64,000 nt of DNA. It comes from Paramecium tetraurelia (Eukaryota). The stretch's first letter is position 1. Every line of letters begins with the position of its first letter. The notes beneath the pieces were generated by a model. The model ran no database searches. It was not told the origin of the DNA and saw nothing but the letters and a program-made list of their open reading frames with translations. The translations under genes were made by a program, and so were the position numbers. The stretch lies in the NCBI GenBank assembly GCA_000165425.1, contig CT868064.1:1-64000 (forward strand), in the 5' to 3' direction. Positions 28,711 to 64,000 of the stretch are shown here, in pieces.

Positions 28711-29335
28711 TCATCTTTTAACTTTTTCAAATTTTCCTGACCTCTCCTGCTTCAAATTTGGATTCAACTCTTTTTCTGGACGTTCATCACTATACATTAA
28801 TGTGTTTGGATTCTCTTCATCTAAAATAGACTTTGGCATTGGCTTCCCTTCCCAAAAAGGACCACTAAAATGCTATCTATCCAGTAATTCTTTATGTCTA
28901 AGTATACATAAGCTAGACATACTTTTTCAAATCATCGGGATCAACATTAGCTGCATACCAATTAGAATAATCAACTTCCTTTCTTTTTTCAGCTTATCCT
29001 TATACCAAATTTCCATTTTAATAAATATAAGTACCTTTCTTCAGATCAATATCCTCAGTCTTTTACTATTATTCCTATTACTCATTAAACTTCTAAATGA
29101 TTTTTTCTTGAATAGATTCCTCTTCCTAAGTGATCTATTAGTACTGAATATTGGGATTAGTTAACTTCAGAAAATTTATTTAATATTGAATCTCTTTTAT
29201 TATTTATTCCTCAGGTTTAGCTTCCTATACGATTTTCATTAGGTTTATCGATGCCCTTTGTTATTTTTATTAAGGAAGTTGATCAATAAACTTTTTAGCA
29301 GATAATAATAGGAGTCTCACTTCCTTCTTAATCAT
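28711..29335 (-). CDS. Hypothetical protein, about 200 aa, with motif YSNWYAANVDPDDLKRHKELLDRQHFSGPFW
   Basis: Code-6 frame from ATG 29335, one 25-nt intron, TGA at 28713-28711. Confidence 0.7.
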
Positions 29336-29342
29336 TTAATTA

Positions 29343-32300: not shown

Positions 32301-34753
32301 AGATAATTAAAGTTGATAAGGAAGAGGTTACTCCAAATATTTCAAAGCCAGCCTAACCTTTCTTTTAGCGACTCATCAATAAATATGAATTGAAATAACA
32401 ATAATAATATGTAGATATCTTAGGAATGGAATCTGCAAGAGACAGTGTCAGCTATGGGCCCTTATCATAAAGAATTAACTTTATTAGTCCCTCTTCAAAG
32501 TAATAATAGATGTAAGAATTAATTGAAAAAGACTTCACAGACCTTCAAAATTAATTAGAATATATAAATTAAGATATCAACCAAGAAAATGATGTTCCTG
32601 ATTCTTCACAAATAAAGAGCAATAGTAAAGACTAAAATTAAAAAGGTCCCAACATCATTGAAATCTATCAAAATAATAAATTCAACTAAAAAATGGAAGA
32701 TATTGATAGGGATGCAAAAAAATCAAAATCCAGTATTACTTCTGGAACCTCTGGTGTGTCAGCCATAACAACTATTAAACAATTTCAATAGAATACCCAA
32801 ATGACAGATAGCCTAAAAAAGCTAGCCATTATTAATATTTTAATAATGGTTATAATTATAGGCTATATTATTGCCCATTTGGTAAAATTAAACACTTACA
32901 CAGAGCAAACTTAATAAACCTTAGCTAATATCAATGGGCCCACTTTATTTAATCGCTATTTCTTTAAAATCTTCACTTACACCTGGAGTCTTGTATTCAA
33001 TACACTTGAAATTATAGAAAGCAGCGATTTTATTATAAAGTCAACAATCTCTGAGATGCAAGATTTAGCTTAAATCGTATTTATTGACTTAAGCAAAATG
33101 TATAAAATTTTTATAGGGATTGAGGAATCAGGAATGCTAAGTTACATCAACTTGGATATGCTTTATCAATCAAATGAAAATGTAACATATACTTACTTTA
33201 TTAATTTAATTTCTACTGTTTCTGATCAATTATTTGAGGCTCTCAACTACGATGTTACTACACTGATTTAAATTATTGATAGAAGATATTTGGATAATCT
33301 ATTAATGTTGAGATACAATCTAAAAAATGTTGTCCTCATGAATTCATAATTAATTGATTCTTTAAATGAAGTCTATTTCTAATAGTAAGATGATAATATT
33401 CAAGAATTTTAAACACAAATTATATTAGAAATTGTTTTCTTGTTAGTAATAATAGTATCGTAATTAATTTACTGGAAATAAATTGAATAATATTGTTAAT
33501 AAATCTTAATACTAGCAGGAAGACTGTAATACACTTAAGCTTAAGAAATGATCTTAAGATTTACACTTGTAATTGAGACCTTAAAATAATTTTCTGGAAA
33601 TTAGAGTTGGAAGAAATAAAACTTTTATAAATTATTATTCTTTCCTTTAAATGAAATAGGAATAGATACTGTTCAAAGTCAATCAAGAATTTTAAAGGAT
33701 TACTAAAGTTCGTAAGTTAGTTAATAGTTTAGAATTAAGCAAGCGTTCGAGGAAAGATAAAAAAATCTCAAAAAGAACTTTAACGTTGTACTTAATTCTA
33801 AGATTAATAATCCAAACACCACAATCTTCAAAGCCACAATTTTAACAATGATAACATTTTTAATATTTTTAATTTATCTTTTGGGTGGATTTGTATTATT
33901 TAGACAATAATAAAATGATTTATTGCCAACTCAATAACTAACCTTAAGTTTTATTAGATTTACATCTTAATTAGATATAGTCGTTAGCACTTCATTAATA
34001 ACCAAATCTTAACCTCTTTTATATGATAAATTGATAGAAATGAAAATATACACAACTAAGGAAATAGATAAGTTTAGAGATTAAAGAAAAATTATAAAGA
34101 TTTTTATCTCTTTATATTCGATTTATTATGAAAATATTACTTCAATTTATGAGAACATCATTAAATCAAATAAAATATCAAGCGAGGATGCCAGCACACT
34201 GCTTACATTGTATTAAGGGGATTTTTGTTTAGAAATTGGTTCTGATGTGCCTTTTTGTAATTATGATACAATCACAAATTTTAATTCTCTCTATGGAATT
34301 CCAGACTCTCAAGATGACAACAGAGAGTATCTAAGTAAAGGTATACAAGGAATTGTGAGCAAATTAGACACTTTTTTCAAGTAGAATTATTAGTTTGAAA
34401 TTAATAACACTGAATACTTTCCAGATAAAAATGTAACCAAGGAAATCATGATATCCAAAGAATTTACAAATGCTGTAATGGAGCATTTCTTAGATACAAC
34501 AGATGGAACAAATTTGTTCCTTGATACGTTGATGTAAGCTATCAATAAAATAACTAATGATAATCTGAATTTATCCTATACCTATTACTTAATAACTGGA
34601 TTCTTATTATTGATTATTTTCCTTACTTTTTATGGACTTTGGATATATAACTCAAATCAAAGATTGATCTTGCTTAGGTTAATTCTAACAAATTTACCTA
34701 TTGAAGTTCTAACAGAATAACATACATTGACCTTACTTAGAAAATTATAATGA
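29343..34753 (+). CDS. PAS-domain polytopic membrane protein (TmcB/TmcC-like), about 1,780 aa
   Basis: N-terminal TM bundle (LQYLALMLPQNGW), helical region, PAS signature (QFFGY..RLMPSFFAEQHDKLLLNYLQTA), then a second set of TM helices and extracellular loops (GDFC..VPFC..YLSKGIQG). Only about two introns. Confidence 0.8.
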
Positions 34754-35264: not shown

Positions 35265-37474
35265 ATGTAACCAGGTTTGAAGCAATTATTCTTAAGAACT
35301 AATGGCCTTATATCAATAAAGCCAAAAATCAGAATCACGGACAATTACACTCTCTCTCTTGTGTATTCACCTGGAGTGGGCCACATTTGCCAAGTCATTC
35401 AAAAGAATCCAGATCTATTATACGATCTTACCATTACAGGCAATTCTGTTGCACTTCTATCCGATGGATCAAGTATATGTTCTACCTTATCTTAGGATCT
35501 TAAATTAAAAAGCCTTCTTGGATGATTCCAAATTTAGAAGCCATCAGTGCATTATACAAAGCCTTTTATGACATCGATGCCTACCCTGTAATTTTGGATA
35601 AGGAAATCATGAATGGGGCAGATGACTACTTGCTGATCATAGATAATTTATCTACAACATATAAAGTATTATCCCTTCTATTTTTAGACAATTGTATTCG
35701 TCGATATCGAAGAAAAATTGACTCAAGAACTTTTGCATAAGTTGGAAAATGCCAAAATTGATTGTACAGTCGTCATTAGTAACACTCATTCCTTAGTTGA
35801 ATAATTAAAAGATGCTGCTCTTATCAAAAGTGCCCTGGATTCTCGTTCTATTTTAAAACCATCTCTAATTGAACAAATTAGACTAAAACTCAAAGGAATT
35901 GATTTCTCACAATTACCAAACTACTTAACAGCTACACTCAGTTCTGCCTATGCTGCTAGTTTGAATGAAATCCATAGAAATGGATTATTTCATCATACTG
36001 TAAAAAATACCACTCCATCCCAATTCATATCAAAATTAAATGATTTATATCTGTATGGTGAGATTGCATACTACAACAGATGGACACCCAAATAATTCTT
36101 ATAAAATAATGACATTAATTAGAATTCACTGGAATTACATAAAAGATATAATGGTGTCATCACCATTGCTTTGAAATTTAATCCAAGATCTCTAGAAGAC
36201 TTATACAGAATCTATGAGTTATCTTATAGGAATAATGATATCTTAGAGATTCAAAAATTATTCGAAGCTGATCCCAAGAAAATCCGTGAAGTCACACTAA
36301 AAAAGAATTATGCTGCAATAGTCACAAATGGAACTGCCATTCTTGGACTTGGTAATATTGGACCAGCTGCTGGATCCCCAGTGATGGAAGGCAAATCTGT
36401 TTTATTCAATGCTCTAGGTGGAATTGATTTGATGCCCATCTGTTTCAAGGAAAGAGACCCTCATAAATTAGTGTAACTTATAAGATAGTATACATATCCA
36501 CAATTATAATTTAGCATTGCACCAATCTTTTCAGCAATTAATCTAGAAGATCTTAGAGCTCCTGATTGTTTCCCTATTGAAGAAGAAGCCATCCAAAGCA
36601 TTCATATTCCTTTGATGCATGATGATCAGCATGGTACTGCTGTCGTTAGTTTGGCTGCACTCATCAATTACTTGAAATTAACAAAAAAAAATGTAAAAGA
36701 TCTTAAATTGGTCATCAATGGAGCAGGGTATTCTACCTAATTATTCGTAGTGCTGCAGGTGTTGCCATTTGTAAATTACTCCATGGTCATGGTGTAGAGG
36801 ACATCCTCATTTGCGATACTGAAGGAATCATCTATGAAGGAAGACCCAAGAATATGAATACATTTAAAAATGATCTTGCTAAATTTACGAATAAAAATAA
36901 AATAGCTGGCAAACTAGAAGATGCTGTCAAAGGCAGAGATTTGTTTGTCGGAGTCTCCAGTGCAGTATATTATATTATTTATGGTTATCATAGGGAGCAT
37001 TAACATAAGACATGGTACGTAATATGAATAAGGATCCATTTATTCTTGCATTAGCAAATCCACTTCCAGAGATAATGCCAGATGATGCAATTCAAGCAGG
37101 TGCCTTCATTGTAGCTACAGGAAGATCAGATTTTAACAATTAAGTGAACAACTCCTTGGCATTCCCAGGAATATTTAGAGGAGCTATTGATACCAAAGCC
37201 AAAGAAATCAATTTACAAATGAAGGTATCTTATACCATTTAATATGAAAAAGATTGCTGCAGCATATGCTATAGCAAATAGTATCAAAGAGAGTGACCTA
37301 TCACCTACCAAAATATTGCCAGGAGCATTGACAGCTGAGATCCCAGCAAATGTTGCTAGAGCAGTTGCAATTGCAGCTATGGAAAGTGGTGTTGCTCAAG
37401 TCAAAGTAGATCCAGAGGAGGTTTTCGATCATACAAGAAAATTGATAATGGAAGGAAGCATACCAACATTATGA
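35265..37474 (+). CDS. NAD(P)-dependent malic enzyme, prokaryotic small-subunit type, with a degenerate duplicated N-terminal half (about 690 aa)
   Basis: The C-half has [67 protein letters not shown]. The N-half has [10 protein letters not shown] and [10 protein letters not shown]. Six tiny introns. Confidence 0.92.
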
Positions 37475-40905: not shown

Positions 40906-41475
40906 ACAATTAAATAATTATTATATTTGAGGAGTACAATATATTTATCAAATGCTATTATGTACAACTTCGATAATTTTGTCAAGAAATGCCTTCTGAT
41001 AAAAAGAATCGTATATAAATTCAATAGCATAATATCAAATTAACACAAATTAGATTTATGAATTTTATAAAATATTAATACAAATGGATTAACTTATAAT
41101 TGTAATTCAAATAGTAAATATTATAATCACAACAATAAGCTGCAAAATGAATGAATAAAATCAATTACGTTTAAGTATAATAAACAAGAAGGATGTACTT
41201 TCTGTAGTTCTAGTTAATTCATTTTGTATTGCATGCATGTAATCAGAATTTTGATACATTCTTAGAATTAACGTAAAATCTTGTGTAAATTCATTATTTT
41301 TTGTATTCAAAGCATTTATTTTATTATTACAATAAATTTTGATATAAAAAAAACACTATTTTGTAGTTCATGTCTCCTGTAATCATGTAAATAATTAAAA
41401 CACGTATTTTTTCATTTATACAAATTAATAACACTAAGTTATTGTTTAAAATAAGTTTTATAAGGAATATATTTA

Positions 41476-44400
41476 ATGAGAATTTCATTGATAGCTAACT
41501 TAACAATTATAGCTCATTCGTAACACAAGAATTCCGGAGAAGATACAATCGCTAAGCTGTTAGTCATCGTGCCTTACATTCAATATGTATCACTACTATT
41601 GCCCTAGCATGGATGGTAATATTGGAAATATAACGATGGTTATTTAATTTTTCTATCAAAAGCATCCTCCTATTTCACTATTACTCCCTTTTTCGAATTT
41701 CAAAATAATTTCATTTACTATCCTTTTACAATTTTTAGTCTCATTATACTATTAAGTCTTATATTTTACTTGTGTTTTTTCAGTTTAGAAGTGAATTCAA
41801 ACAAACAGAAAGTAAAGTATTTGGAAGGGAGAACCAGTCTCTTGTGTTCAATTATATTATTCACAATTTACACGCTGCAAATACCATGTTATAAGTTTTA
41901 CATTTAACAAATTATAGATGCTAATAATAAAAATTAGACAAATTAACTAATCGTTAATATCTGCACACTAATTTTATACTCTGTTTATGTTTTAGTATGT
42001 GAATATCTTTTAAGAATGTATTCTTTTATTGCTTATCATCCAATGTAATAAAAATTTACAAAGTTGAGAAGTTCTATAATATTATTGAATTTAATTGCTA
42101 TAGTCTTGACTTTAGATAATTAATCCAAATTATATAATCTTGTTGGTTTGTTTATATTGCATCTAATCTTTATCATTAAAATCGTAAATCATTTATACTA
42201 TCAATCCGATGTTCCGCATAAAAATATGGTAGATTTTGAAATCTCATTCACTCTTGAATCATTGGCACTTTTGATAACCTTCAATGTCTTATCCGAAAAT
42301 AAGATTTTTCCAGAAAATTAAATAGCTATCTACATTATGTTCATTTTGAGTCTAGGAATAATTTTGGGAAATCATATCTATTTATTTCTTTTTCAGTATA
42401 ATTTCAATGAAAAAACTAGACAATTGAATCAAATTTATGAATTATACTCCTACATTTGCCAAATTAATTCAAACTCTATAACTTAGCAACATTTACTGAT
42501 CTATCAGTTGATTAATAGTTCAAAGTTTTCAAAATTTAAACATAAAGCTATTATTAGCAATAAATGTGTAAATATGGTTGAGTATTACAAGTTAGGATTG
42601 TATTTAATTTCTGAAATCTTTCTTGATCTAATTAGTGGAGAAAAAAATGAATTGGAAGAAATATAATTGCTCTTTGTTTCTTTTGTAGCTCTTGTTAGAA
42701 AGAAACCACTTGTTGCTTATGTTGAATTTAAGAAATTTGAATAAAATAGTAATTACACTAAATCTTATTATTTTGGATTTATTAAAAACAGAATTGAATT
42801 ACATCTACAAAGACGAATATCTGCTGTTCAAAAGATTTATCAAAATGAATAATTATAGTCAGAAAAAAATAATGTCAGTATTGAAAAAAGAATTACAACC
42901 CTTGAACTTTTTTAATTTTGTTAATTGGAGGAGACTTTCTAAAAAGATCTTCTGGAGATTATTTAAACTAAAATAAAAATCTGGGAATTCCAAATCTAAG
43001 GATGCCAATCAATTTACGATTTTTAAACAGTTGCACTTCCTTTGAGTAAAAAAATAGTAGATTGCATTATTTATTTAAGAGGATAGTAAATCAATGTAAT
43101 TAAAGATGAGTTTATAAAAACATGTGAAAATATTTTAACTTTGAAGATTTGTTCTATGTTTCATAGTTTTGTTTTAAATGACTACTATAATTCTTTTTTA
43201 TGCGAATAGAAAATTTCTTCCATCATGAAAGCAGAAACTGTCTCTCAATAAAAAATATTATCAAGATCTAATATCTTATTAGATAACTCTGTATTGGTTA
43301 TTGTAAGTATGGTTAAACAATTAGGGTAAATACTGAATAAAAATAAGAGTCAACTTGCAAATTATTTTGGATTTTCATAAATGGATTTCAATTAAATCAA
43401 TAATATTAGAGAACTGATGCCTAAACATTTTGCCTATTAACATGATGCTTTCCTTTTATCCTATATCAAAGAAGCAAAGACAGATCTTGTGTTTAGAGAT
43501 TCCTTAACGTTTGCAAAAGGTAAAAATGGATTTTTAATACCTTAATATCTTAATATCTATAATAACTACAATATCTTTGATGATTTTACTTTAATTGGTA
43601 GTCTGACAAAAATAAAAGAATCTCATAATTATCTTTTATTTGATGAATATGGAAAGTGTATAGGCATCACAAAAGAGATGAGTTAACTATTGATACCAAG
43701 AGAAAACTAAGAATTTTTTTTATAGAACATCGAGCTATTTTTTATCTACATGTTTCTTCCACATATTCATATGTATGTTAATGATATGCTTCAAAATAAC
43801 AATAAAGAAGGAGGATTTTTATAAAAATCAGTCATTCTTTATGTTTATTAAGATTTAATTTAATTATCCAAAATTCATGAATCAATTTTCTCAACTTATA
43901 AAGCTTAATCTATAAAGTAAATTGAATAAACTAAAACATATACTTAATTTGAATATCTAAATTCCATGGTTAATAGTCCAAGAAATGGAATGAATCAGAG
44001 ATTGATTACTGATATAAAGCCAAACTAAAACTAGCTTTAGGATGAAATCATTATGGTAGATACAAATAGAGAACAGTAAAATAATTCAAAAAAAGAAGGA
44101 AAATCTGCATCATCTGCGGCAGAATAATAAAAAGAATAATAGACAGAATAATAGAAAGAATAATAAATGATTGAGTTTTTAAATGCTATAGATGTAATTA
44201 TATAAATATCTTTAGGATTTATAAAAGACGATGTACTTATGTACTGCAAAAATACATATGGCTGATATAGGTAGAAAAGGAAATAAACAAAATTATTTTA
44301 TTTTAGATTGCTCTGATTTTATTGATAGAGGGAATCTTAAAGAAGATGAAAAGAAGCTAATAAAAACACAATAAAGTTAATTGCGTAATATTAAAACTAG

Positions 44401-46693
44401 AAATTATATCAGAAGACCAAGTTAAATCATTTAATCTCAATCAAATCACAAGAGTTCTGAATAGTAGATGGAATCTTCAATAATGAGCCCCTTAGGATCT
44501 CAAGTGCACTAATCGAGCTTTCTTGATAAAAATTCTAGGTCAAAAAAAATATTGAATTATATCAACTAAAAGAGAACTAATTAGATTGGTAGAATAACTT
44601 AAGTAGAATCAGAGAGTCTACATGAAGAGATTATTAGCAATGATTTTAACTAGATTATATAAAAAAAGAATGAACTTAAATCCAACTAAGAGCTTTTGCT
44701 TAAATCTTAATCAAGTAGTAAGTCAGGTTAATCTGGATAAACAGCGATTGAAATAGTAAACAATTTTAAAACTCGAACTTCTCTAATCTCAAGCCTAACA
44801 ATAATCTCTATCTTGAAATTAATCATAATTCTACTGTTCCTTGTATTCATGTTCATCAACTTGACCTAGGTCATGACCTTCAATAATCAAGCAAAGAATT
44901 TTTTATCGGATATTAATTTACCAATCAGCTTTAACAAATATTTTTTAAATGTATTTACTCATTCTTGGATAATTTTAATGTAGAAGATTAAGATCTTAAA
45001 TACAAGCTAATTTATCTAAAACCAACTCCAAGACTAAAGAGTTAGTATGTTGAGCACATTTTAAAATCTGACAATTATGTACGGAAACTTTATAGCCTTA
45101 GAAGAAAATCGTTATTTAGACGAAATCTCAATAGTGCATCCAGATGAAAATCTCTAGGTAGAAGAAGTAGAGTTTACCGATTATCTGTTTTACCTTGAAT
45201 AAGTAGGTTTTAGATTATTATATAGTGATAATGAAAAAGACTTTTCAAGCAATCTTTTAAAATACAGGATAAATTTTGAAAATATTATCGTAAACAATGA
45301 TAAACTTATTTTATCCTTGAGCAACTATTATGAGGTTCAATAAAATGGAAAAATATCAAAATTTTTCAATTTAATTCTAGTTTAAATAATAGTGATTGGA
45401 AGTGTTATTATATCATAATTATATTTTTGGAGAAAAATAGAGCTTTATTGTTAAAGAATACTGATGTTATCAAATAGACTAAGTGAAAAAGCAGCAGAAT
45501 AGTAGATTAGCAAATTCAAAATCATAATCTCAGTGATTAAGTAATTATATGGCGAATTTGGCTATAAATAGAGAAATTGTTATAAGCTTTGTTATACTGA
45601 AAAATCATTCAAGAAAAAAAATTTTAGGTCAATATCCAAAATGAAACATCGAGAATCCATTTTACAACAAAATAGTTAAAAAATATTTGAAACTTAAATG
45701 AAACAATCTTAATAATCAACTATTCCCTTAAATTCAAGAATATAAAAACCTTCCATCAAATTGATGATTAAAAGTATTACAGTATTGTTCTTTGTTATCA
45801 TAATAGTGTTGTATTTCATAGGCTGTTATCTGATATTTAAGGATCAAACCTAACAATTGTCACCTCCTCAAGATTTAGCTATGGGGTATATCTAATTTTA
45901 CATAGATTTTGAAAATACAATTGCTATTTCACTAATAATAAAATCAGAATTTTAGATTTATACTTTCATGAAAGACTCAATTCCATTTTATGCAAAGACA
46001 GTCAATAAATATTTACAATAATCAAATACTATCCAACTTTTACAAAGTGTGTATAGTTTTGATCATAGTAATTTAAATGATATCTATGATCGTATCATAG
46101 AATCTGATGCTTTGAAAGGGGAAGACGAAACATTTATATTAAGTCTGTATAATGGAGATTTTTGCTAGCTATTTCAATCAAAAATAGCATTCTGCAATAA
46201 GGATATGAGTAAAATAAATTTTGAAAGTAAATTTGGACAATATGCAAATAAAGATAATAATTCTGATTATCTCAGTAAGGGAATTTCTGGCATGGTGAGT
46301 AAACTGGATAATTTCTTAACCTAATATTATGAAACTGAAATTCTAACAGGATAACCAGTTAATGATTTTGCCTTATTGAATTCTTAAATAAATACATAGG
46401 ATTTTAATAACATCATAATATAACATTATCTTGACACTTATAATGGATTTGAAGCATTTATTGCCAAGATTTAAGATTCCTTAATTAATCTGATACAAAA
46501 GCAGCAGAACAATTACAATATATATTAGATAGCAGTTGGTGTAATTTTTACTGTGTTTCTACTTTCCTCCTCAGCTTATATAGTAGTGAAAGTGAATTTA
46601 AGGTTGATTTATATTAGACTGCTAATAACTCTGCTGCCAATTGAAATTATGCTTGACATATATACCATATCTTTGCTGAAACTTCTAAAATGA
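41476..46693 (+). CDS. PAS-domain polytopic membrane protein (TmcB/TmcC-like), paralog of 29343-34753
   Basis: IQYVSLLLPQHGW, NYFGF..ELMPKHFAYQHDAFLLSYIKEA, GDFC..IAFC..YLSKGISGMVSKLD. Ends RLLITLLPIEIMLDIYTISLLKLLK. Confidence 0.8.
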
Positions 46694-46946
46694 ACTATTT
46701 ATTTATATTAATACTTGAAATTCTATTTATTTCTTCGTTTAGATTTATATTCATAATAATTTGATAATATGATTTAAGTCTTTTTCCTCTTAGTTCAGAT
46801 AATGAAATCAATAACATTTCTTTTGATCCCATGATAAATGAATCATAATGGCCATTAAAATTTTATATTAACATACATATAATTAAATATTCATTCTAGT
46901 AATAAATATTTTAAACTCTTTGTGTTACGTGTAATTAAATAATTTA

Positions 46947-49305
46947 ATGAAGTTGTTCCTACTTTTATCACTAATTCTTATAGCTTCTCAAGGTAGAAAA
47001 ATCATTAAAAAACACGTCAAGGGTGAGAGACATTCAAGATAACCTGATTTCGATCCCAATTAATTAAATAATGATGATTTAATTGACAAGTTTAGTGAAT
47101 CTGAAATCCAAATTTCAGAACACTTATCTATTGGTGAAGACATTATTGATATAATAAACAAACAAACAATTGAATATGAAAGCTAAACTAATTAACAATA
47201 ACAATAATAATAATAATAATAACAATAAGAAGATATAACATCAACAAATGAACAATCAGATTAGATTGATCTAGAATAAGTAGAGTTTGATTAATTACTA
47301 TAATAACTAGCAAATGAAAATCATGACATAGATGTAGATATACCCCTTATTAAAGAAGATGTTATATAAAACAATAATTTTAATGAGTAAGTTGAAACTA
47401 AACCTGATGATTAAATTTAACATCATTAGGATGATTAATAAAATAGCGATTAGTTTGAATAAGTTAATGATGCTAATGCTTAAAATAATGTTGAACCCAT
47501 TCTTCCTATTGCACTTGAAGAATAAATATAACATTAAGAAGAAGTGAAATAATCTGAATAGGTTGAAATATAATTAGAATAAGAATAATAAGACATCCCT
47601 ATTTAGGTAGATTAGATTGATCTAAATGATTAGCCATAAACTATAGAAATCGATAGTTAAGATTAAACAGAATTGAAGTAGGAAGGACAACAGGAGTAAA
47701 TTCATGAGAACGAAGTGCTTACATAATAAGAGACTCAACCTTTAATAGAGAATTAAGTCGAAGATATATCTATCTAACAAGATAATCAACATTTAGAATC
47801 AAAGAATGTGGAGGAACTTGAATAAGTAGTAAACTTACATTAGAATATTCACTAGGATACCCAAAATGCATAAGAAATTATCAATTAATAAAATTTAGAA
47901 TTAGAAATTCAATAAATTACAATTGAAAATACATAAGACAATTCATAATAAGGTGATCAAGCAACAAATTAATAAACTGATGAATAAATGCAAGTTTAAG
48001 AAGAGATTCCACAATATTAAGAATAACCAATAAGCAAAGATTCAGAATATGTTGTAATAGAAGATAATATAAATACTGCTGAAATTATATAAGAAAATGT
48101 TGAATAATTATAAGTTTAAGAGAATGAACCAATAGTTGAAAATAATGAAAACATTCAAAATTAAGATGATATCCAATAATAGGAATAGGAGTAATCGTAG
48201 CAAAATTAAGAAATAATTGTGAATTTAGATGAATTATTAAATTAATAGTCAGAATAAATATCTAATCAAAATTTAGATTCAGAAGTTAATGAAGATATTT
48301 AAATCATTCCAGAATAAATAAGGGAAGAGAATTATGATCAAAGTCCAGAAATTCTAGAATAAGAATAATAAAATGAAATAAATAATAATGGTTAAAATGA
48401 TGATTAAATATAAGCAGAAATTTAATAAGATTAAGAAAATATTTTGATTGACCCTCATGCAAATGAATATGCAAATAATGGGCATTAAAATCATGATCAT
48501 CACCATCATCATGACCATGACGATCATCATCACGAACATCATGACCATCATAATCATTATGATATTCATCTTGACCATATTAATAATGCAATATTAAATG
48601 ATTAAATTCAAAATGAAAACTAAAATGATAGTAATCCAACCGATCCCAATAACTCAATATCACAATAACCATCATGCTCATTCGATAATAAATTATCTTG
48701 CTCAGGTGATACTCATACATAATATAGTACTGGGGTGGAGACAGAAAATAAACCTCTTAATTAAGAAGAATTGTTATAATACGTTCTAACTCATTCCTAT
48801 TTATAATATTATACGAATTATCCAGTGTAATTTTTTGGTGTTTTGGCTAATGTATTTCTATTTTCTTTGGTGATCTTGAAAAATCTAGTAACAAAGAAAC
48901 AAACTCCATATTCAGTAACAATTATCAATTTATTATTAGACACAAATTAGCAATGAATAATACAATGAAGATAATGGAGACAATTCTTAATTTTAGTATT
49001 AAATTAACTCATTAGACACTATTTTATCAGAAATAAATACTAAATTGGATACTCTTACAAAATCTTATCAAAAGATGTAGAAAGATCATCAATTGATTAA
49101 TTAAAGTATTAAATTCTTTATATTAATAGTTATAAATGACCTTTAAACAAAAGTACTTGCGAATTTAGAAAAAAAAAAACTGAAAGAATCTTGTAAATCT
49201 CTGAATGAAAGTAATGAAGATGATTAAGGAGTAAGATAAAAAAGAACTTAAACACAGATAAAACCTCGATAGCGACCGACAACCCCAATTTAAAGATAAT
49301 ATTGA
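46947..49305 (+). CDS. Predicted type I membrane protein: signal peptide, long acidic Q/E/D/N-rich domain, His-rich tract, TM helix, cytosolic tail
   Basis: MKLFLLLSLILIASQG; HDHHHHHDHDDHHHEHHDHHNHYDIHLDH at about 48490-48580; TM FFGVLANVFLFSLVIL at about 48830-48880. Confidence 0.7.
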
Positions 49306-53749: not shown

Positions 53750-55210
53750 TCAGATAGAACCTTCCTTTTGTTTGTCTTTTCCTTCATAAAACTTAATGTA
53801 TTAACTCACCATCTCATTCACTTAAGGTTTAGTGACTCTTTCACCATCACTTTTGATCATTTTTCTAAATAAACAGAAGCCAAGTAAAAAGAATAATACA
53901 ACAAATGCAGCTAGAATCAATAAATATGAAATAATAGATTAATCTAGTACTGGAGGTTAATAGCCTTCAATTTCTGAACTACATTCAGGTGGTGGTGTTA
54001 AAAAGCCTACGTTGAAATAATAGAATTACTGTTGCAAATCTCTCCGAAGATGCCTTATCCCGAGAACTACCCTTTGTAAGTCATAGAGTTGACTAGAACT
54101 GCTGGAAATACATTTATTCCAGAAACTTAGTATATGTGCAATTAATTTTCTAGTAAAAGATTGATAGCATTAGATTCATTTTTGGTTGGTTGGGAAGTAT
54201 GTTGGTCCACAAATGATCCATCAAAACAATTTTGAACTTCAGTTTTAGAGATCCCTTGTGCTTCCATTATTTATTGACTACAAACAGAGTAGGCTTAAGG
54301 CTTAGAACATTTGAAATTGAATTAGTCCTAAATAAATAGCTTGAATTGAATACCATATACGAAAACCATTTCTCTGGGTATTTTTAGAATATGCATGTTT
54401 ATCTTAAAATCTCATAGACTACATCTTTGCCAGTTCCAATGCCATAACCATCAGGATCAAACACACAATATCTATTTGAACAAATACAATCAGCATCCTT
54501 TTGATTCACAATTGGAGTTGTATCATTAAAACTCATCATAAAATATACAAGAGTGTAATTGATATCTTGATTTTTCAACTATTAGTAGTATGGTTAATAT
54601 TCATCAATAATTCTGAAAGATTCTCGATTTTGAATATTCAGTCCAAAAATGACTGATACTTTATCAGTTTAGACAACATCAAACTTTAAAAGCATCATGA
54701 TCTTTAAATCATTTGGGTCCTCTACTTTATAGGACTGAGCATTCTTAGTTAAAATATCGAAATGCTTTTTTTTGATGAAGATGGATGGGATTGATACCTA
54801 AGATAAAACTTGGAATATAAACTTAATATCCATAACCATCATCAGCCATAGTAAAATCATATTGCATTTGTTCGTCATTGTAATTCCCAATGATTGCCAT
54901 TTAATATCCAGCTTTCTCAGCATTCTTGACTTTAGTGACAAATGTACAGTTCCCTCTTTCAATCAAGATAAAATGAGCTCCATAAGTAGGTCGAAGATCA
55001 CTACATCCATTTTGTGGATAAGCCACATCTACTATTCCCATCAAACGATGTCCAAATGGTATAATTCTAGTTTTTGTAGACAACAACAATATACCCAAAA
55101 TTGGCTATACTATAATCAATGTACTCATTAATTAGGTTTTATGGCCTGATAACTTTGAGTTTAGACTAAATAACCGTAATAATGCAAATGAGTAGGAGAA
55201 TATTATACAT
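53750..55210 (-). CDS. PA-domain vacuolar sorting receptor (VSR/BP-80)-like type I membrane protein
   Basis: Signal peptide, YSIANFGIIPFG, LIERGNCTFVTKVKNAEKAG, IPSIFI, CICSNRYCVFDPD..GTGKDVVYEILRQTC, a C-terminal TM helix and VNEMVSQY. Confidence 0.85.
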
Positions 55211-55361
55211 AATTTAAAAATAATTGTGTCATCGATTATTAGTTTTGGATTAGATTAATACAATCGACATAAAATGTGAAGACATTACTCACAAGGTATT
55301 GCCTTGCATTATTATTCTCTGATTGAGCCAATTGCATTATTTTCTAAAATTAAGAAAATTC

Positions 55362-55904
55362 ATGTATTATATTGATTTTTTTGTTAGTAGAAGTGACTTT
55401 TACAAACAACCTTTCCCCAATATCGGTTTAAAATCAATAGAAGAGTTCTTCTCAGAGAGAAACGAAATGTAAAAAGTAGGATTGACTTCAGATGACAATA
55501 TACACTAACAAATCATGACTAATGAATAGTATTTGTAGGATCCAAATAAAATTGAAGCTCAGAAATAAATCCAAATGGCAAATCAAGGGTTATTAGAAGA
55601 GTTAAATGATTCATTTGCAGATTCTTATGTAGATTCCTAAAACCTAAACAAAAAATCAATATTTCTCAAAGGTGCTAAAATAGTGAAATAGTTAGTTGGC
55701 AAGATACTTCATTTCAGAAACAACAACAGAATGTAAAGTAAAAAAAGGAAGGATATTAAATGCACCTGTAAAAAAAATTAATGTTGCAATCTTTATTGTG
55801 GGTGTTATTAGATATAAAAACATTGCACGAAATCATGTAAATGCAACAAAATCGAATGTCACAATATGCCTAATACAAGTTCCTAATATTAATAATTACG
55901 ATGA
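55362..55904 (+). CDS. Tesmin/TSO1-like CXC (CRC) domain protein, 180 aa
   Basis: Open 543-nt frame with C-terminal CTCKKNQCCNLYCGCYQIQKHCTKSCKCNKIECHN. Confidence 0.8.
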
Positions 55905-55968
55905 TATTTTAATTAATAAATTTTAATCTCTATTCCAAAAATGTTGAAATTCGTTTATTTTATTATAA

Positions 55969-58900
55969 TCAAGTTGTACTAGTTCTTCTTTTGGCCTTAG
56001 ACTTTTATTTAACTGCATAGAACTCCAATTTCTGGCATAATGGATTATCCACGGGCAATAGAGCCTTGCAAATTTAATATGCCTTAATATTAGATGTAGA
56101 GCATATACCTTTTAAAAGTATTCCTCTCCCGAATAATCCATCTTTATCTTCTCCTTTTATAGAGTCTCGATGCCATCTTTGATTATGAGTTCGATCGTAT
56201 GAGTAGGGACCTTTGCTTTCTGATCAATTGTTAATTAGAAGGCTAATTTGTCACCTTCCACTTATAAGAATTGGATTAATTTCTTCTAATCCTTCCTTTG
56301 CAAATCTGGCAATCTCTTACCAGATAGAGTGTCCAATTCTAATTGCTTCAACAAATTCTACTCCAAAAACCTAATAAATCCGTGGGTCTTATAATTGTCA
56401 AAATGTTGAAGGTACGTTTTATCCTCTTTAAGAATTAAGGTGAGGATCTCAAACTTTTTGGATGGAGCTACTTAAAAATAAATTATCTACTTAATAATGA
56501 CAACCCCATGAGAACATCCACGTAGTTCTTAATCATATTCATTATATTCTATCTTAGATATCCTTATCTAAATGTTAGTTTGCAATAGTCTGGGTTGTAA
56601 ATGGATGTTTAACAAAACTCATAGGCACTTTTAGCCTCTTCCAAGTACCTCATTGTTGACACAATTTTACTTTGGATCTAATGATAAATGTTGATATCAT
56701 ACAAAATAGATATCTGAGTAAGTGGAATAGAGATAAGCTAATTAGGGACTGTACTCATAGGAGTATTCCTGACAAAAGCTCCTGTAAATGGAATAAGATT
56801 AGTTTGCTGCTATTAATGACCATCTGCAAACTAAATCAATGGACAATCCTTCATTGATGCCTTCTAGCACAGTTATCTTTGACTAAATGAATGATTTGGT
56901 TTCCAAGTATTTCTATTCCATAGCTGGGGAGCATTTATTCTTGACTTTGCTTTCCAAAATCTTGATGGTTTTTTGATTCAACTCAGACTTGAATGTACTG
57001 ATTTTAGCTTCTGTATCAGTCTAATGTTTATATCATAGATTCTTACAATTAGTTGTTCTTCTAGATCTTTGACTCTTAAAGTAGTCAAGAATTCAGCATA
57101 CATTCCAGCAATCAATCTTTGGATGTGAGCATTAAAGATATGATTCGATCCATATTATTACTATACGTATTTTTATATAGCAAACATAGGGTCGACGACT
57201 TGGGTTAATTTATCTGCGACATTAAGAGAAGACTCCAAATAGCATAAAAAGGCTTCTGTTTTGAGTCTATTGATTTCAAAGTAGGGTCTAAGTGCACTTT
57301 TCATAAGTGTTTAGTCATAAGAAAAGATGAGGGGTTTAATAGATTCTTGTTCAGGTCTTTTGATTTCAAAGAATTTGTCGAATTCCAAATTGCAAAAAAC
57401 CTAAAGATATATAAGGATTAGATAATACTCTTTCATTTTTGGTTGTTTTGATTTGAACATTTAATAACTATTGTTTATCTTCAATAGTTTGTATCATTAA
57501 TTGAGATTTTGAAATACCTTTCATATAATCTGCAATAATTAAATCCAAGTTCATCTGAATATTAGAATTAAGTGTAATGATCTCCTCAACTTGGGATTGC
57601 TAACCAAATTTATCCACACTAAAAGTAATTATAATTTGATTACAAAGATAAATTTGCCTAAGCCAATTTAAAGTCTCCTTTCATCATGATTGCTAGGGTA
57701 TGTAAACTTTCAAGATACTGAAACGCTGTTCTTAGGAAAATGATTTGTTTCAATGTTTTAAATTATCGAACATTCAAAAAGAGTTCTTTGATTGGTTCTA
57801 GAAGTGCCAATACATTATGTTCGTATTTCTCATAAATCTAAGCATTTTAATTTAATATTTTGAACATCTCCTCTACCTTCAAATCCTTTTTAGTTGATTT
57901 TTAGAATGTTTTCTCAGCCTGCCATCTTATAGCAACCTTACATAATTATGAGTAGATTAATTAAAACAGTTTCTATGAGACACTGGCTGCAGTGGTATCT
58001 GCATCTGAATATTATCCAGTGTGCATCTGGTAAATGACTAACTTAACTCCTAATTGACACAAAACCACTTGATTTTCTAAGGAGGCTGAATCAATTTATG
58101 CCAAGGCTGCCTTGATCTAGGTCATTTCATTTTACTCAAGGGATTAAGACAACAATAATTTGCTTACTTCTAAATAGTTATTTGATCTCTTGGTAAAACT
58201 CTAGGCCTTCTACACTTGTTCAAAGAGATCTTCCATTTGTCTTTCATCGGTTTTGTCTTCTTTGAGGATGTTCAAACGAATCTCTTCTTAATAAGCGAAG
58301 ATCTTGACGTTGAATATTTGCAAGGTTTGATAGAAGGATGAATGAGTAGAATTGAATAGATATGATTTGTTCTCAAACAGCATCAAGGTGAATTTCAATA
58401 ATTCGGATGCAAATTCCAATTGTTGGTTCTTCAGATTTAGATCTAAGATCTTTAAAATCACAAACTTGATATCGTAATAGTTCTCATACTTCTCCTTCTT
58501 TATCCAAGGCATTTACTTGAACTCAATCAATTAAGTAAGTGAAGTTCCTCCCAATTGATGTTAGACTATGGTAATAATATCGATGGTGGACAAGAGAATC
58601 ATGTGAATCAACGATTTGGTGTCTGTTTGCAGTACAAACTCTTCGGCTATCTGATCCATTTACGTATTGATTGTCTATAGAATGACCGGCAATTGCTGAT
58701 GATTTTAGGATATTAAGCAAAGTCTTGCTCTTACCAAATTGTGCTACACAACCATGAATCCATTTTTATTGCATAATGATTCTTCAGCTGCATGTTTGGC
58801 TTCTATAGATTTGAGAAAGGTCTCAAGATGTTCATCATCCAAAGATTCCAAATTCTACTTACTATTGATATAGAAATATCCTTAGATTAATTCCGTGATT

Positions 58901-61900
58901 ATGTTGTTCATGAGATTGTTCTTGAGCCAAGAATCGTTGTTGTTCTTTGAATTATACTCCTCATAAAAAAAGGGCACTAAGGGTTAATAATAAATTTGCA
59001 ACTACTTGATGAGTGACTATTCCATGATTACTTGACTAATCTCCTCAATGTTATTAGTCTCCTTTTTGGTTATGTAAGGGTATTGATGATTCTATGTGTG
59101 AATGAGTATATGCAAAATCTTAATGCATAGGATGCAATTCAACAGTTCTGCATTTTGATCCTTCAGTATTTACATGAATCCTTGGAAGATTCCCTCACTC
59201 ATCGTAATGGGATTGTAATAGAGCAATTAAGAACAATGATATATTAGGAGAGCCAATAGTTGTTTGTTGTAATTCTGAAAGATTTAGGATTTGAGACCGA
59301 AACTCTCAGAGATAAAGAATACTTCTTCCATTATTTCAGTGACTGTTTTGAAGATATTCAAAGTAGATTTCTCATCGTTGATTTCTGCGAAGTATTCTCC
59401 AGTCCACCCTAATTGAGGAATCTGATTCAATTGACTCAACAAACAATTTTACATAGTGAAATTCTTGGTGTAAGGCTTCAACCTCTTCAGTATGCCATGA
59501 TTGTCCTTACTCCTATTCAAATGCATAATCTACAGAAATTTGCCTTGCCTGTACAGCCACTGCAAAGTGTGATCCAAACTTCGTTGAAAATCTTCCTTGA
59601 TTTTGATTTGAGTGTTTTACAGTTATTATCTTACCAAGGATGACTTTCTCCTGTCGATTTCTCCCAAGTTCTCTTCATCCACTTTGATGTAACTGTGCAA
59701 GATATTAACTTCATTTAGTAGATCATGCACTTACTGAAAATCAGCATCTCGCCAACTATCAAAACTGATTTACACTTTCATATAATACATTTTTAATCTA
59801 CTTACCATCTTGATTAGGATATCCTCTTTAATCACAAATTATCCTTACTAATTCTTTTTGGAGTGTTTCACATCATGGACTATCTCACCTGAAGTATCAA
59901 TGATGAACTCTTCAGAAATGTCATGAGCCAATTAATATTGTTATTGCAGATGGTAAATCTACACCAAAGCTTACTGGAAGAAATGCCCATACTACTTTAA
60001 TTTATAAGGCAATTATTTGACATCCTTGAGTTTGTTTTTATCTTCCTTACAATTCTTTATTAATTGATCTTTGGACACTTACAATTCATACAATTACTCT
60101 CGATTTGCTATTGACAAATGAACATTCTAGATCTTCTGTCGTTCTTCCTCTGTCTTCGTTATGTCATGCAGCAAATGAACACATGTAATCTCCACTCCTT
60201 TGATGATCTCCTGAGATTTCAGTGACAATTGTTAAGCATAACGATATTGCTATTTCATGATACTCAGTTGCACTTTACTCAACAGATAAAGTACTAGATA
60301 TTTAAATTCGTGTATATTGCTACTCAATATTTCATACACTTGATTGTTGCAATAGTTGTCAATACAAGATAGAATGTCTCCTGTTTCTTTGGCATATGGC
60401 AATTGATAGAAGAATTGTGTCAACATGTTCTTCTCAAATGCTTCGATCTCCTCCTCCAATTAAACCAGTTGATGCAATTTCAAATGCTATTCGAATTTGT
60501 ATATATTCTATTTCAAGTACTCTTGAATGGATATCTTATCCTTCACATTCACATTGAGTTGAGTATTCTTCCCATCGAAAATACGAACCATCTAATCCTT
60601 GGTGATTTTTGGATTTGAGTTCTGTCTAATCTAATGGAATAAGGCTTCGTCAAAATTGATTCTCACTTCAGTCTCTTTGTAAGATTGCTAATTCTTGTGC
60701 TTCTAATAAATCTAACTAGGGAACTATCTCTGCATTTAATCAGGATTGATCAATTACAACACCAAATTCATAGTATTCGGATACTTCATTGTCAATTGCT
60801 GCTTACTATTCACAATCCATCTCTTAACAGCTCTCTCCACATCTCCTTCTTGATCCTTCAATAACTGCTCAATCTGAATGCCCATCTTACCAAGTGTTGC
60901 CATCTGTAAACCAACCATGCCTAATGAGTATGCATCACACTTCTATGGGGAAATGGCAATCTGGAATTTTGGATTCAAATAATTTGTGATTAATTCTGGA
61001 CTCATGTACCAAAGTTCATCATTTTATTCTATGGCTCTTGTGAAATATACTTTCTCCTCGTTATAATCATACCAATAGAACATCCCAAAATCCACCAGTC
61101 CATACGTATACCAAATATCATTCGGTTATTAATTTTTCAATAATATTATTGTTTACAAATTGATACTGCCATGATACATACCCTATTCACATTCAACAAA
61201 TGACAAAGTATCCAATACACTCACCAAAAATTCACAAATTTCCTAATCACTGTAATAGTTTGTTCTACTCTACAAGACTTCCTTGAATGCCTTACCATTG
61301 CAAATGCTGAATCCTTTAGGTGGTCCGTATGCTCTACTCAAATACCCTTTGATGACTGGATCCCTAATATTTGTTATTGGATCTTCAGGTGTTATCTTTA
61401 GATACTTAAGAGGAACAATAGGGACCTTCAATTGCAATTCCATGTATTGTATATCAGTTATTTTCTCATAGAATCTTGCCACTCTGCTTATAATGTCTTT
61501 ATGTAGAGTCCTGTGGTACAGAATTTCAGTCTAAAAAAACACCAAAACATCAGCCAATTTAGGCTTCTGAACTTAAGACACTAACCATCTATACATTTAC
61601 TGTTTGGCTGCAAAGACATTGTATTCTAAAGTGGCTGTATGCAAGGATTTCTTCGTATCTAAAGGAACGATGAAATATAAAATAGGCTACTCCTTAGCAA
61701 TCTATTGATCAACGAACAGATTCCAAATCTGATTTCTTAAGATTGAGACTGGTGGAGCCTAGATTCTGAAAGGAATGTAAGTGAAATTGACCAAATTGAA
61801 TTACTTCCTCAAATCCAATCCAATGTAGGCATCTAATTCGTATTCCACCTAGCTGACTCCTTTGGATGTCAAAGGGAATTGTAAGTTGGTCTTCGGAGGC

Positions 61901-64000
61901 AATTGTATTGAATCCACAAATTTCAAGTAGTCTTCATCACAATATCTAGATATTTGAGTTTGAGTCATGCTATTAATGTAAGAGTAGAATCGTTCGTCAA
62001 CGGGTTTAGTATCCAATTCCCTTCCTTATTGTTTGAAGACGGATTTGTAATTCATAAGCAACTTAACATAGTTCTTAGCAATTGCTATGGCTGGTTTTTT
62101 TCTTGTGCTCTTACGATATTAACTAAACCAAACTCCTTAGACTTTAAACACAACAGTCTTACGGCCATCAATCCATAAGTGCTTCTCCACATATTCTTCT
62201 ATCTTTTTCAATATTTCCATCTTTTCAATGAAATTCGAATGGATATCAAGATTCTGATTCAGGATTGTCAACTACCTTCTATACTTCTCATGTTAACTCT
62301 CCTTCAAACCATGTCTAAGTTTGTTTTGATTCTCCTAAAATACTATGGTTCTTCTCCAATCAAGATTTCTTATCAACACTAGATGTCTTCTTAAGAAGCA
62401 TTTTCTGAAAGTGAAACGATCATCTGTCCACAACTTTTAATGAGGATTGAGTTCATTCAGCATTTTCAGAAATTTGAGAGTCTTAAAGAAGAAAGCCTTT
62501 TGCTTTTGTTGTATTTCTGGGTCAGTAGAATCCTTCAATTTAAATTTCATAGCCCAATTAGAAGGTCTGCCAGCCAAATATTTCCTTAAAGTTTCAATGG
62601 ATTCCTTTTTCTTTTTTGATTTGGCATCTTCATCTTCCATAGTAGTGGATGCACTTAATTTAGATTTCGATTTCTTTTTTGATGACTCTGATTTCAATGC
62701 ACTCCTTGGTGATGATTTCATACTTTTAGGGGAATTATTATTTTATTATTATTTCTCCTTTTACTTCTACTTGTTCACAATATAATCTTCCACATCAGAA
62801 TCTGAACTAATTTCTTCGTATTAACATGTCTTCTATTCTGATAATAAACAACCATAAATCTTTTGAGTCGGATATCTTTTGATATCATCGTCTCCTTGGT
62901 TTTCTGATGATTACTTTTCACTTGAGCCCATAAACTTCTCAATAGTACTCTTGATCAAATATTAATGTCTTTGCATTAAATTCTATATTTCGTAAGGTAT
63001 CTCTCCAAATATTGAACCTTCAATATACCTTAAAAAGAAATTAGACAACAAGATGATTAGAAAGAAAGCGAGCAAACTTATTGTTGGATTGTAATCAACG
63101 ATTCTGTCTCTCGAATAAGAAATCAAACCACTATTCGAAACTAAGGATAGATATGCCAATCCTTCAAGCACATCATTCCACACTCCAATTGTAGATTCCC
63201 CTAGTGGCAATGGTCTTTACATATCATTCAACAATTTCAACTTGTCTGTCTGCAATTCCACCACGTTCCAAATGAAAGCAATGAAAAAACATAATGGAAA
63301 TGTCGTACCAAATAACACCAACATTGAATATTAGAGAGTGATTTCCATATATTCATCTACAGTACCATATCTTTCAGGACTGATAACGTAGGACTCTTTG
63401 TACAAGAATTCATTTTCAATAAAATTATTTATTTTTTCGAAGGGATTTGTCTCTCTTGTAATGGTTTCTTTCTTTTGAGTATCTTATTTCTCAGAAACAT
63501 TTTGTTCATTAGCCTATTTCGAAGATGCTCTATCAGGAGATAGACTTGGTGACTTTTGGGAATTCAAATCATCATGTCTCACATCCTCATCATCCTCTCT
63601 GATCTCATCAATCTGAGAAGTGAGTTTCTTGTTTTTTTAGACTTCCACATTTTCTTCTTTTTTCTCCCTCAATTATCGCAGAAATACTATCACTTTTGGT
63701 TTGATGATTTCCCAAATGTTCAATGAAAATTGTATTAAGAATATGGTCGAGAAATGATATTAAGCATGCTTCAAACAATCATCATTTATACAATGCAAAC
63801 CTACTTTCTAAAATATAAAAGCATATTACTTTATGTCCAAACATGATTTCAACCACTGGTCCACAGAGTGCAAAAAAAGATAGGAAATACTTCTTAAAAA
63901 CAAAATTGGTCTCATATTCTGTAATTGTTTTGTGATTCTCATAATCAGTCAATGACCCTGCTGTCTTGTCAAAAAAAGGATCCAAAATCAGAATCACTAT
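55969..64000 (-). CDS. Giant anoctamin (TMEM16) fused to a pseudokinase domain and TPR-like helical tail; 5' part lies beyond the window
   Basis: Anoctamin motifs ENHKT..EYE..FVFK, NIWE, DEYMEITLQY..LFGTTFPL, NVVELQTD, IGVW. The same frame has no TGA down to 57644 and passes through YHGSIN, VDFG, YMSPE, KCDAYSLG. Later TPR-like repeats. TGA at 55971-55969. Confidence 0.85.

Follow-up and report, generated by a model that had tools for sequence, protein, structure and literature searches.

A stretch of 64,000 nucleotides (nt) from Paramecium tetraurelia (assembly GCA_000165425.1, contig CT868064.1, positions 1 to 64,000; hereafter the window) ends in a long minus-strand open reading frame (ORF) that raises a question: are an anoctamin (TMEM16) membrane domain, a kinase-like domain and a very long C-terminal tail joined in a single protein, and is that protein a channel-enzyme ("chanzyme")? 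An earlier note, made from the letters alone, had read positions 55969-64000 as an in-frame fusion of this kind with a candidate "chanzyme-like" design. We conclude that the three parts very probably form a single fused protein. With moderate confidence, we favour the interpretation that the locus is one ciliate TMEM16 gene whose product would carry a non-enzymatic regulatory or docking tail.

The frame (57586-63948, on the minus strand, as are all features of the gene) is open across 2,120 codons in genetic code 6 and is the longest of the 34 ORFs of at least 100 amino acids (aa) overlapping positions 55000-64000. It includes an exon of 6,164 nt (57644-63807), which encodes transmembrane (TM) segments TM6-TM10 of the anoctamin, a linker and a pre-kinase region, followed by the kinase-like domain and the first 1,010 aa or so of the tail. 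TGA is found at none of its 2,054 codons, versus 77 and 92 occurrences in the other two frames, which excludes chance as the cause; 63 TAA and 41 TAG codons are present in frame and are decoded as glutamine. The coordinates of the five ORF fragments that had been linked in the earlier note (63210, 62721, 61482, 60459 and 58512) are each a multiple of 3 away from 63948, and the fragments therefore share the frame of the exon.

ORF residues 48-2101 correspond without mismatch to P0007, a Paramecium database protein of 3,565 aa, and a gene model featuring one upstream and six downstream exons around the 6,164-nt exon reproduces P0007 residue for residue. The upstream exon (63830-64000), which runs off the end of the window, supplies a portion of the anoctamin TM domain (P0007 residues 948-1004 in the frame-0 translation; tblastn aligns residues 948-1006 to 64000-63824). 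It is followed by a 22-nt intron (63808-63829, GTA...TAG), the excision of which restores the P0007 junction MFGHK/KVGLHC. Downstream, six introns of 23-28 nt (57643-57619, 57428-57401, 57046-57021, 56702-56678, 56490-56468 and 56108-56083) interrupt six exons (within 55969-57643) encoding the last 506 aa of the tail, and the spliced frame ends in a TGA stop at 55969-55971. The spliced C-terminus matches P0007 at 558 of 558 residues. Altogether, residues 948-3565 of P0007 (2,618 aa) are encoded within the window. The earlier description of a TGA-free exon of about 6.16 kb with borders at 63807 and 57644, and of about 2,600 aa of protein within the window, is thus accurate.

The same architecture was found in related proteins. 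A search with the non-anoctamin part (ORF residues 480-2120) identified three clusters among 3,508 candidates; these proteins, 3,566-3,670 aa long, all contain the Pfam Anoctamin domain, and all three clusters bear the UniRef name "Protein kinase domain-containing protein". Cluster members are full-length fused proteins of 3,553-3,671 aa from P. primaurelia, P. sonneborni, P. pentaurelia, P. octaurelia and P. tetraurelia. Five are orthologues of 3,553-3,568 aa. The others form a paralogue group (3,657-3,671 aa), which includes one named P. tetraurelia model and is 40% identical to the window protein and collinear with it across 3,662 alignment columns. An anoctamin-domain search among proteins of 1,960-6,239 aa retrieved 10 of 4,001 candidates, namely the three fusion clusters, a Tetrahymena thermophila protein (P0030), four giant Paramecium anoctamins (2,914-3,216 aa) and the proteins P0035 and P0036. 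P0030, which is 4,140 aa long and named "calcium-activated chloride channel protein", was matched by a hidden Markov model (HMM) of the Paramecium core over the anoctamin (positions 733-1465) and again over the kinase C-lobe (positions 1854-1983, E = 4e-10); its post-kinase tail was unmatched. The fusion proposed from the window is therefore carried by five aurelia species and by the 40% paralogue, and its core is present in Tetrahymena.

The family HMM further revealed that distant Paramecium paralogues have the pre-kinase region and the extreme C-terminus in common with the window protein; the latter was matched in P0031 (E = 1.5e-7) and P0032 (E = 1.3e-6). In a tree of TM domains, the two kinase-bearing clusters group together (94/96) and are joined by P0031, P0033 and P0034 (88/96), with Tetrahymena, P0032 and P0035 on long branches without a resolved place. 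Searching a representative library with 1,200 aa of the tail (phmmer) gave 17 matches at E <= 0.001, none of them at 1e-30 and 16 of them fragments of 42-184 aa; this search missed known full-length relatives and is uninformative on fused versus split forms. The remaining match, an environmental protein of 963 aa (P0017), was judged spurious or unrelated, as each of its roughly 14 tandem 52-aa repeats weakly matches the family HMM and does so over no more than the DFG stretch (positions 1921-1957).

Identity to P. sonneborni is 88% in the TM domain, 93% in the kinase-like domain and 95% in the last exons; the corresponding values for the old paralogue are 49%, 47% and 46%. Orthologues retain every one of the five acidic Ca2+ ligands, and conservation of their TM domain is 88-98%. 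The first part of the tail is 90-98% identical, and the last exons, the best-conserved portion of the tail, are 95-98% identical to orthologues and 46% identical to the paralogue. Judged from these identities, the tail is under constraint and is conserved at least as well as the channel among orthologues, and the family of the window protein is conserved and under purifying selection.

The assignment of the membrane part is clear. The stretch encoding TM6-TM10 (62965-63807) matches Pfam Anoctamin (PF04547) with E = 5.7e-43 and 147.9 bits (cut-off 28) over profile positions 235-460 of 460. Full-length P0007 covers the whole profile (1-460) with residues 768-1285 (318.1 bits, E = 1.3e-94). All 20 distinct PDB chains retrieved with the anoctamin part at E <= 0.001 are TMEM16 proteins, confirming the TM6-TM10 region recognized in the earlier note. 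The acidic Ca2+ ligands of mouse TMEM16A are E654, E702, E705, E734 and D738, as given in section 5 of PMC7118279. Three motifs of the window protein align to this site: NIWE (63709-63720) to N651/E654, EYME (63343-63354) to E702/E705, and ELQTD (63244-63258) to E734/D738. All five acidic positions are E or D in a phmmer alignment to Anoctamin-1, so that the ligands are intact in these three motifs, as had been claimed; the TM6 stretch aligns weakly (2.6 bits), with NiwE and NlfE still in register. The polar ligands are less well kept: Asn is found at the N651 position only, and N650 and N730 are replaced by Leu and Trp, respectively. N650, N651 and N730 are auxiliary ligands, and the definition of the TMEM16 family is independent of them. 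The cytosolic loop between TM6 and TM7 features a charged, Ser-rich insert of about 100 aa (about 63379-63696), which differs in length and sequence among paralogue groups and Tetrahymena and is missing from P0031-P0034.

Ca2+ sites vary in the wider family. In alignment A2, the E654 position falls in a gap in the paralogue P0004, and Gln occupies E734 in both P0031 and P0034; by this comparison, some giant-anoctamin members may have lost Ca2+ gating. It is from these losses, and from a tail that is conserved among orthologues at least as well as the TM domain, that one could argue for the TMEM16 part being mainly a membrane anchor for a tail scaffold, with transport secondary or lost and the conserved function residing in the tail. 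We regard this alternative as unlikely, since the window gene and its orthologues keep the five acidic ligands within a TM domain that is 88-98% conserved, and since Tetrahymena P0030, compared at the positions from E654 to E734, is acidic throughout (Asp at E654 and Glu at E702, E705 and E734).

The region connecting the membrane domain to the kinase-like domain is composed of three parts. A helix following TM10, IPYEIQNLMQRHQYLIKSTIEKF (62932-63000), is kept in all paralogue groups and in Tetrahymena (alignment A2). Next comes a low-complexity linker of 132 aa (62539-62931) containing 24 K, 23 S and 12 E residues, in agreement with the K/S/E-rich character noted earlier; it is 81-96% identical among orthologues, with at most two gap positions. 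Shortly after the anoctamin, the linker includes the acidic motif SSDSDVEDY (62782-62808), which is identical in the 40% paralogue, has the counterparts SSEDELFDHY and SSDDELHDHY in other groups, and looks like a phospho-acidic docking or sorting motif. The third part is a conserved pre-kinase region of about 330 aa (61525-62541), characterized by the motifs LWTDDR...NLDWRR and GVWFSQYRKST. This region is 48% identical to the paralogue and 90-96% identical to orthologues, and is also matched by environmental fragments. Pfam reported no family for it, only insignificant rows (NTP_transf_4, E = 0.012; ING, E = 0.43), and a comparison of language-model features remained at chance level (about 100 shared features). 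AlphaFold2 (AF2) predicted long helices in this region at a pLDDT (predicted local distance difference test) of 59-76, the model being poor otherwise. A conserved stretch upstream of the recognized kinase part, SKGVSQVEY...YIPFRIQAP (61753-61866), could conceivably be a remnant of a Gly-rich loop and beta3 strand with Arg in place of Lys, a likeness noticed by eye where the model is unreliable.

RNA data are consistent with a single transcript, short of proof. In three stranded oligo-dT runs, 28, 29 and 28 of 30 bins contained reads of a single orientation. RNA-library contigs tile the anoctamin/kinase junction (61679-62452, 62427-63022 and 63003-63770) without a differing letter. The same contigs give no depth over 56162-57566, and our guess is that spliced contigs failed the 95% likeness filter there. 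Base composition agrees with continuous coding. The guanine-cytosine (GC) content of the linker is 0.27-0.35, which is the coding level, and 150-nt intervals revealed no AT-rich stretch of intergenic type in it; the only two intervals of 55300-64000 with values below 0.24 lie elsewhere.

The feature of the RNA data that could indicate two products is a dip in oligo-dT depth at 62625-63467. Bins in the dip sum to 0.28, 0.18 and 0.76 in the three runs, against 2.18, 2.84 and 3.23 for the three bins just downstream (61782-62624). The dip could mark an internal transcript boundary, or it could stem from a bias in composition or from noise, the depth being very low. In the case of a boundary, an internal start near the linker would yield a separate protein made up of the pseudokinase and the tail; cleavage would have the same effect, as the low-complexity linker could be cut by a protease. 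In either case, the fusion would be genomic rather than functional. Such a separation is decidedly improbable on the evidence at hand. Coverage resumes upstream at 63468-63748, the RNA-library contigs cover the dip at depths of 12.6-19.5, and GC remains at the coding level across the junction. Moreover, the junction frame lacks a stop in the window gene and in every homologue, and the linker is too well conserved among orthologues, with too few gaps, to fit this alternative easily. A word-indexed search for the pre-kinase and kinase module as a stand-alone protein of 363-1,157 aa found none among 4,223 candidates.

The kinase-like domain spans positions 60679-61524 in a structural alignment, from helix C through the C-lobe, and 61305-60703 in Pfam. 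When scanned alone, the segment matches Pkinase (PF00069) with 30.0 bits (cut-off 31.7) and E = 4.4e-7 over profile positions 79-259 of 263; no Pkinase match was reported by Pfam when the whole 2,120-aa ORF or full proteins were scanned. A 661-aa AF2 model reached a mean pLDDT of 54.8, with confident prediction at about residues 430-635 and a pLDDT below 50 in the N-lobe region. Foldseek searches with this model retrieved 15 matches at E <= 0.001, all of them kinases or pseudokinases, including Gcn2, KSR1/2, the JAK1 pseudokinase domain, CK2 and ASK1. All 50 rows shown by VIA-align are likewise kinases (Z 14.2-15.4; 152-243 aligned residues; root-mean-square deviation 3.1-5.1 A), aligned from helix C to the end of the C-lobe (e.g., CDK2 residues 44-296) at 11-22% sequence identity. 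A family profile built from nine sequences gave six PDB matches at E <= 0.01, all six being kinases and the best ERK2 (2.8e-4). By sequence and model, the domain is of the ordinary protein-kinase type, with helix C and the C-lobe supported; Pfam reported no alpha-kinase family. The fold had been placed earlier at about 61500-60720, a position that holds for helix C and the C-lobe; the N-lobe was not seen. Active kinases match as well as pseudokinases do, and consequently no particular kinase family can be assigned.

Catalytic motifs of the domain are degenerate. The sequence HGSINLQT (61150-61173) stands in place of HRDLKPEN and aligns to HRDLKPSN of ERK2, with the catalytic Asp, Lys and Asn all substituted (Lys by N and Asn by T). 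The HRD Asp position is occupied by S, Q, C, G, C, G, S and N in the eight sequences of alignment A3 that cover it, and by N in Tetrahymena. Paramecium sequences retain DFG, an APE-like SPE and a DxxSxG motif, seen in the window protein as VDFGMF (61078-61095), YMSPEL (60991-61008) and DAYSLGMV (60913-60936); the kinase motifs of other paralogue groups have decayed further. Neither a Gly-rich loop nor a beta3 Lys could be recognized, as neither Pfam, which starts at profile position 79, nor the AF2 model aligns the N-lobe. The absence of the catalytic Asp and Asn argues for a pseudokinase and against a "chanzyme", and we consider the domain very likely a dead kinase. The earlier designation "pseudokinase" hence fits; "chanzyme-like" does not, as the domain shows no sign of being catalytically competent and belongs to the ordinary type rather than the alpha-kinase type of TRPM6/7.

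WNK, CASK and SelO are kinases that lack canonical residues and yet are active. By this precedent, and because the DFG Asp is kept in Paramecium and in six of the seven covering sequences of alignment A3, the domain might be an atypical active kinase or a nucleotide-binding switch, and the protein a true channel-enzyme. We rate this as very improbable, given the loss of the catalytic Asp in all eight family sequences and in Tetrahymena, where DFG has become NFQ as well, the substitution of the catalytic-loop Lys and Asn, the lack of a recognizable Gly-rich loop or beta3 Lys, and the further decay of the motifs in other paralogue groups. That two neighbouring genes were merged by assembly or gene prediction has a negligible chance of being true: we found no point in its favour, the exon is free of in-frame TGA, and the architecture recurs not only in five species that were assembled independently but also in old paralogues and Tetrahymena, so that the in-frame fusion proposed in the earlier note is no assembly artefact.

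The tail following the kinase-like domain totals about 1,518 aa. Its first part (about 1,010 aa, 57644-60678) is an orphan sequence poor in Pro and Gly, which account for 3.3% of the 1,011 aa of tail lying in the large exon. This value is compatible with an all-helical protein, and on low Pro and Gly content the tail is presumably helical; of the roughly 1,500 aa of helical sequence described earlier, the length is correct, and the helicity is a matter of composition only. Kinesin-light-chain-like tetratricopeptide repeat (TPR) motifs, also described earlier, could not be found. No Pfam family, TPR included, was matched at E <= 10 in three segments spanning the tail, among them the last 558 aa of the orthologue P0002, and no TPR family was reported in the whole of P0007 or of the paralogue P0004. 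PDB sequence searches with a 986-aa portion of the tail and with the last 558 aa returned no match at E <= 1, and a profile self-comparison of the tail revealed neither an off-diagonal match nor internal repeats (best probability 0.9%). On these Pfam, PDB and self-comparison results, the TPR-like solenoid proposed in the earlier note is unsupported at the level of sequence. Language-model features of the 986-aa portion gave a weak lead to TPR-like MAU2/SCC4 and KBP clusters (0.90-0.91, low recognition). The probability reported by hhalign for comparisons with the tails of Tetrahymena and P0035 was below 1%. As homology of the tail is undetectable there, only the core composed of anoctamin and kinase-like domain is shown by these comparisons to be ancient.

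Several observations weigh against reading the locus as one gene for a Ca2+-gated TMEM16 protein with a pseudokinase-bearing tail. No single read or contig covers both halves of the anoctamin/kinase junction, so that the RNA evidence sought in the earlier note over 62950-61000 consists of the tiling contigs (61679-63770), with no individual record spanning the two halves. The oligo-dT runs are very shallow here, with 143, 291 and 187 reads of 58 nt, the dip at 62625-63467 recurs in all three, and no splice joints, transcript starts or transcript ends were reported at this depth. The Pkinase score is slightly below the Pfam cut-off, and the AF2 model is poor overall and without a confident N-lobe. 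The post-kinase tail lacks detectable homology to the tails of Tetrahymena and P0035. Finally, as the Ca2+ site is degenerate in paralogues, what the wider family conserves may be a function other than transport.

TMEM16 proteins form dimers in which both termini are cytosolic and TM10 lies at the interface, and the fungal members that have been studied are Ca2+-activated scramblases with an unselective conductance. By analogy with these and other non-metazoan members, the membrane part of the window protein is probably a dimer that scrambles lipids when activated by Ca2+ and also conducts ions to some extent. Beyond TM10, about 2,270 aa of cytosolic C-terminus run through the helix, the acidic Ser/Lys-rich linker, the pre-kinase region, the kinase-like domain and the orphan tail; two such tails would be suspended from the dimer's centre. 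An enzymatic role of the tail is improbable; it may be a docking or regulatory scaffold that fixes the scramblase at a given site on a membrane or brings partners there. Feedback on gating, via TM10 and the helix that follows, is a further possibility. The dead kinase would act as an interaction module, or as a switch addressed by upstream kinases via the Ser-rich linker. We give the view of the tail as a scaffold or regulator a slightly better than even chance.

A more specific and rather doubtful extension is that ciliates possess a class of "scramblase-pseudokinase" machines. In these, the pseudokinase and the helical tail would together form a conformational switch coupled to TM10 in a TMEM16 dimer that is gated by Ca2+. 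The level of Ca2+ or the state of the lipids would thus be converted directly into recruitment or release of cytosolic partners at a cortical organelle, and an upstream kinase acting on the Ser-rich linker or on the pseudokinase would gate scrambling. If true, such a switch would be the membrane-transport counterpart of the pseudokinase switches of the KSR or MLKL type.

Comparison with known systems highlights both shared and distinctive features. The window protein resembles TMEM16A, TMEM16F, TMEM16K, nhTMEM16 and afTMEM16 in matching the full PF04547 profile, in the TM6-TM8 alignment and in the five acidic Ca2+ ligands. In contrast, the TMEM16 relatives found in the PDB have chains of 667-1,217 aa, whereas P0007 is 3,565 aa long. 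Its N-terminal part comprises 767 aa, its C-terminal tail about 2,270 aa and its TM6-TM7 insert about 100 aa; of the polar ligands of TMEM16A, it keeps the N651 position only. TRPM6 and TRPM7 are channel-kinases that carry an active alpha-kinase. They are similar in that an ion-transport membrane domain precedes a cytosolic kinase-type domain on one chain; the domain of P0007, however, is of the PF00069 type and is devoid of the catalytic Asp and Asn. KSR1/2, the JAK pseudokinase domain and MLKL are pseudokinases that work as scaffolds or switches. KSR1/2 and the JAK1 pseudokinase domain, which are among the best structural matches, share with P0007 degenerate catalytic motifs and a conserved C-lobe, but none of the KSR1/2, JAK and MLKL proteins is fused to a TMEM16 domain, and identity in the structural alignments is 11-22%. 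Two other giant anoctamins, in which the domain is likewise attached to a very long scaffold or repeat region, differ in organization. The environmental protein P0035 (2,161 aa) has Pfam matches in its tail (TPR_12 and TPR_19), whereas the tail of P0007 has none. In the transcriptome-derived P0036 (5,724 aa), which contains ankyrin repeats, the anoctamin is at the C-terminal end, unlike in P0007.

The closest concept found in print is the alveolate chimera of a P4-ATPase (flippase) with a guanylate cyclase (P4GC), first described in ciliates (PMC13466520). Further papers deal with these chimeras (PMC6592433, PMC7858053). P4GC proteins are very large alveolate chains in which a membrane module that transports lipids is linked to a module of signalling type, as would be the case in the window protein. 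They differ in featuring a P4-ATPase rather than a TMEM16 domain and in having an active cyclase as the partner; the likeness is one of design, and no sequence relationship is claimed. No description of an anoctamin joined to a kinase-like domain was found in open-access papers and bioRxiv, in line with the earlier note on this point. The architecture itself is already public, as automatic protein models carry both annotations (the UniRef kinase name and Pfam Anoctamin). Three candidates from the literature were set aside. An anoctamin in a Stentor preprint, which bears an eggNOG PKG KEGG Orthology (KO) number, is described in the excerpted text as an anoctamin domain with nine TM helices only. 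For Tetrahymena Scr7p, predicted to be a scramblase of the contractile vacuole, the portion of the preprint consulted names no family. Toxoplasma TgDAT1 is, according to the excerpt consulted, a protein of the major facilitator superfamily (MFS), outside the TMEM16 family.

Other genes were noted in the window. An ORF encoding a Tesmin/TSO1 CXC domain (55323-55904, plus strand; PF03638, E = 2.3e-6) converges on the anoctamin gene and ends about 65 nt from its stop; RNA reads in bin 55600-55880, opposite in orientation to those of the anoctamin gene, belong to this neighbour. A PA-domain ORF is located at 54709-55359 on the minus strand (PF02225, E = 1.9e-10). Farther away, a minus-strand ORF of 1,424 codons (11988-16262) encodes leucine-rich repeats (LRR_6, E = 1.3e-17); the C-terminal part after them is hydrophobic and probably crosses the membrane several times. 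Two pairs of long plus-strand ORFs, at 29283-34753 (955 and 953 aa) and 41155-46693 (1,036 and 840 aa), match no Pfam family at E <= 1e-5. By eye, they display common motifs, such as LMPSFFAEQHDKLLLNYL and LMPKHFAYQHDAFLLSYI, as well as hydrophobic stretches, and look like tandem paralogues of a large membrane protein. An ORF with a malic-enzyme N-terminal domain (35637-36857, plus strand; PF00390, E = 6.6e-17) and an ORF of 704 codons with a high content of Q, E and D and a run of His and Asp (46842-48956, plus strand) were also identified.

The window gene is a real, ancient and uncharacterised TMEM16 variant of ciliates. How TMEM16 proteins are placed and regulated in cells is still debated, and here a TMEM16 protein with an intact Ca2+ site bears its own cytosolic apparatus of about 2,270 aa, which includes what is very probably a long-dead kinase domain. 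Paramecium and Tetrahymena are amenable to RNA interference, tagging and electrophysiology, and would offer a natural system to study the role of a pseudokinase scaffold on a scramblase or channel, as well as to locate the sites in ciliates at which lipids are scrambled in response to Ca2+. Alongside the flippase-guanylate cyclase chimeras, this family would represent a second case of alveolates joining lipid transporters to signalling-type modules.

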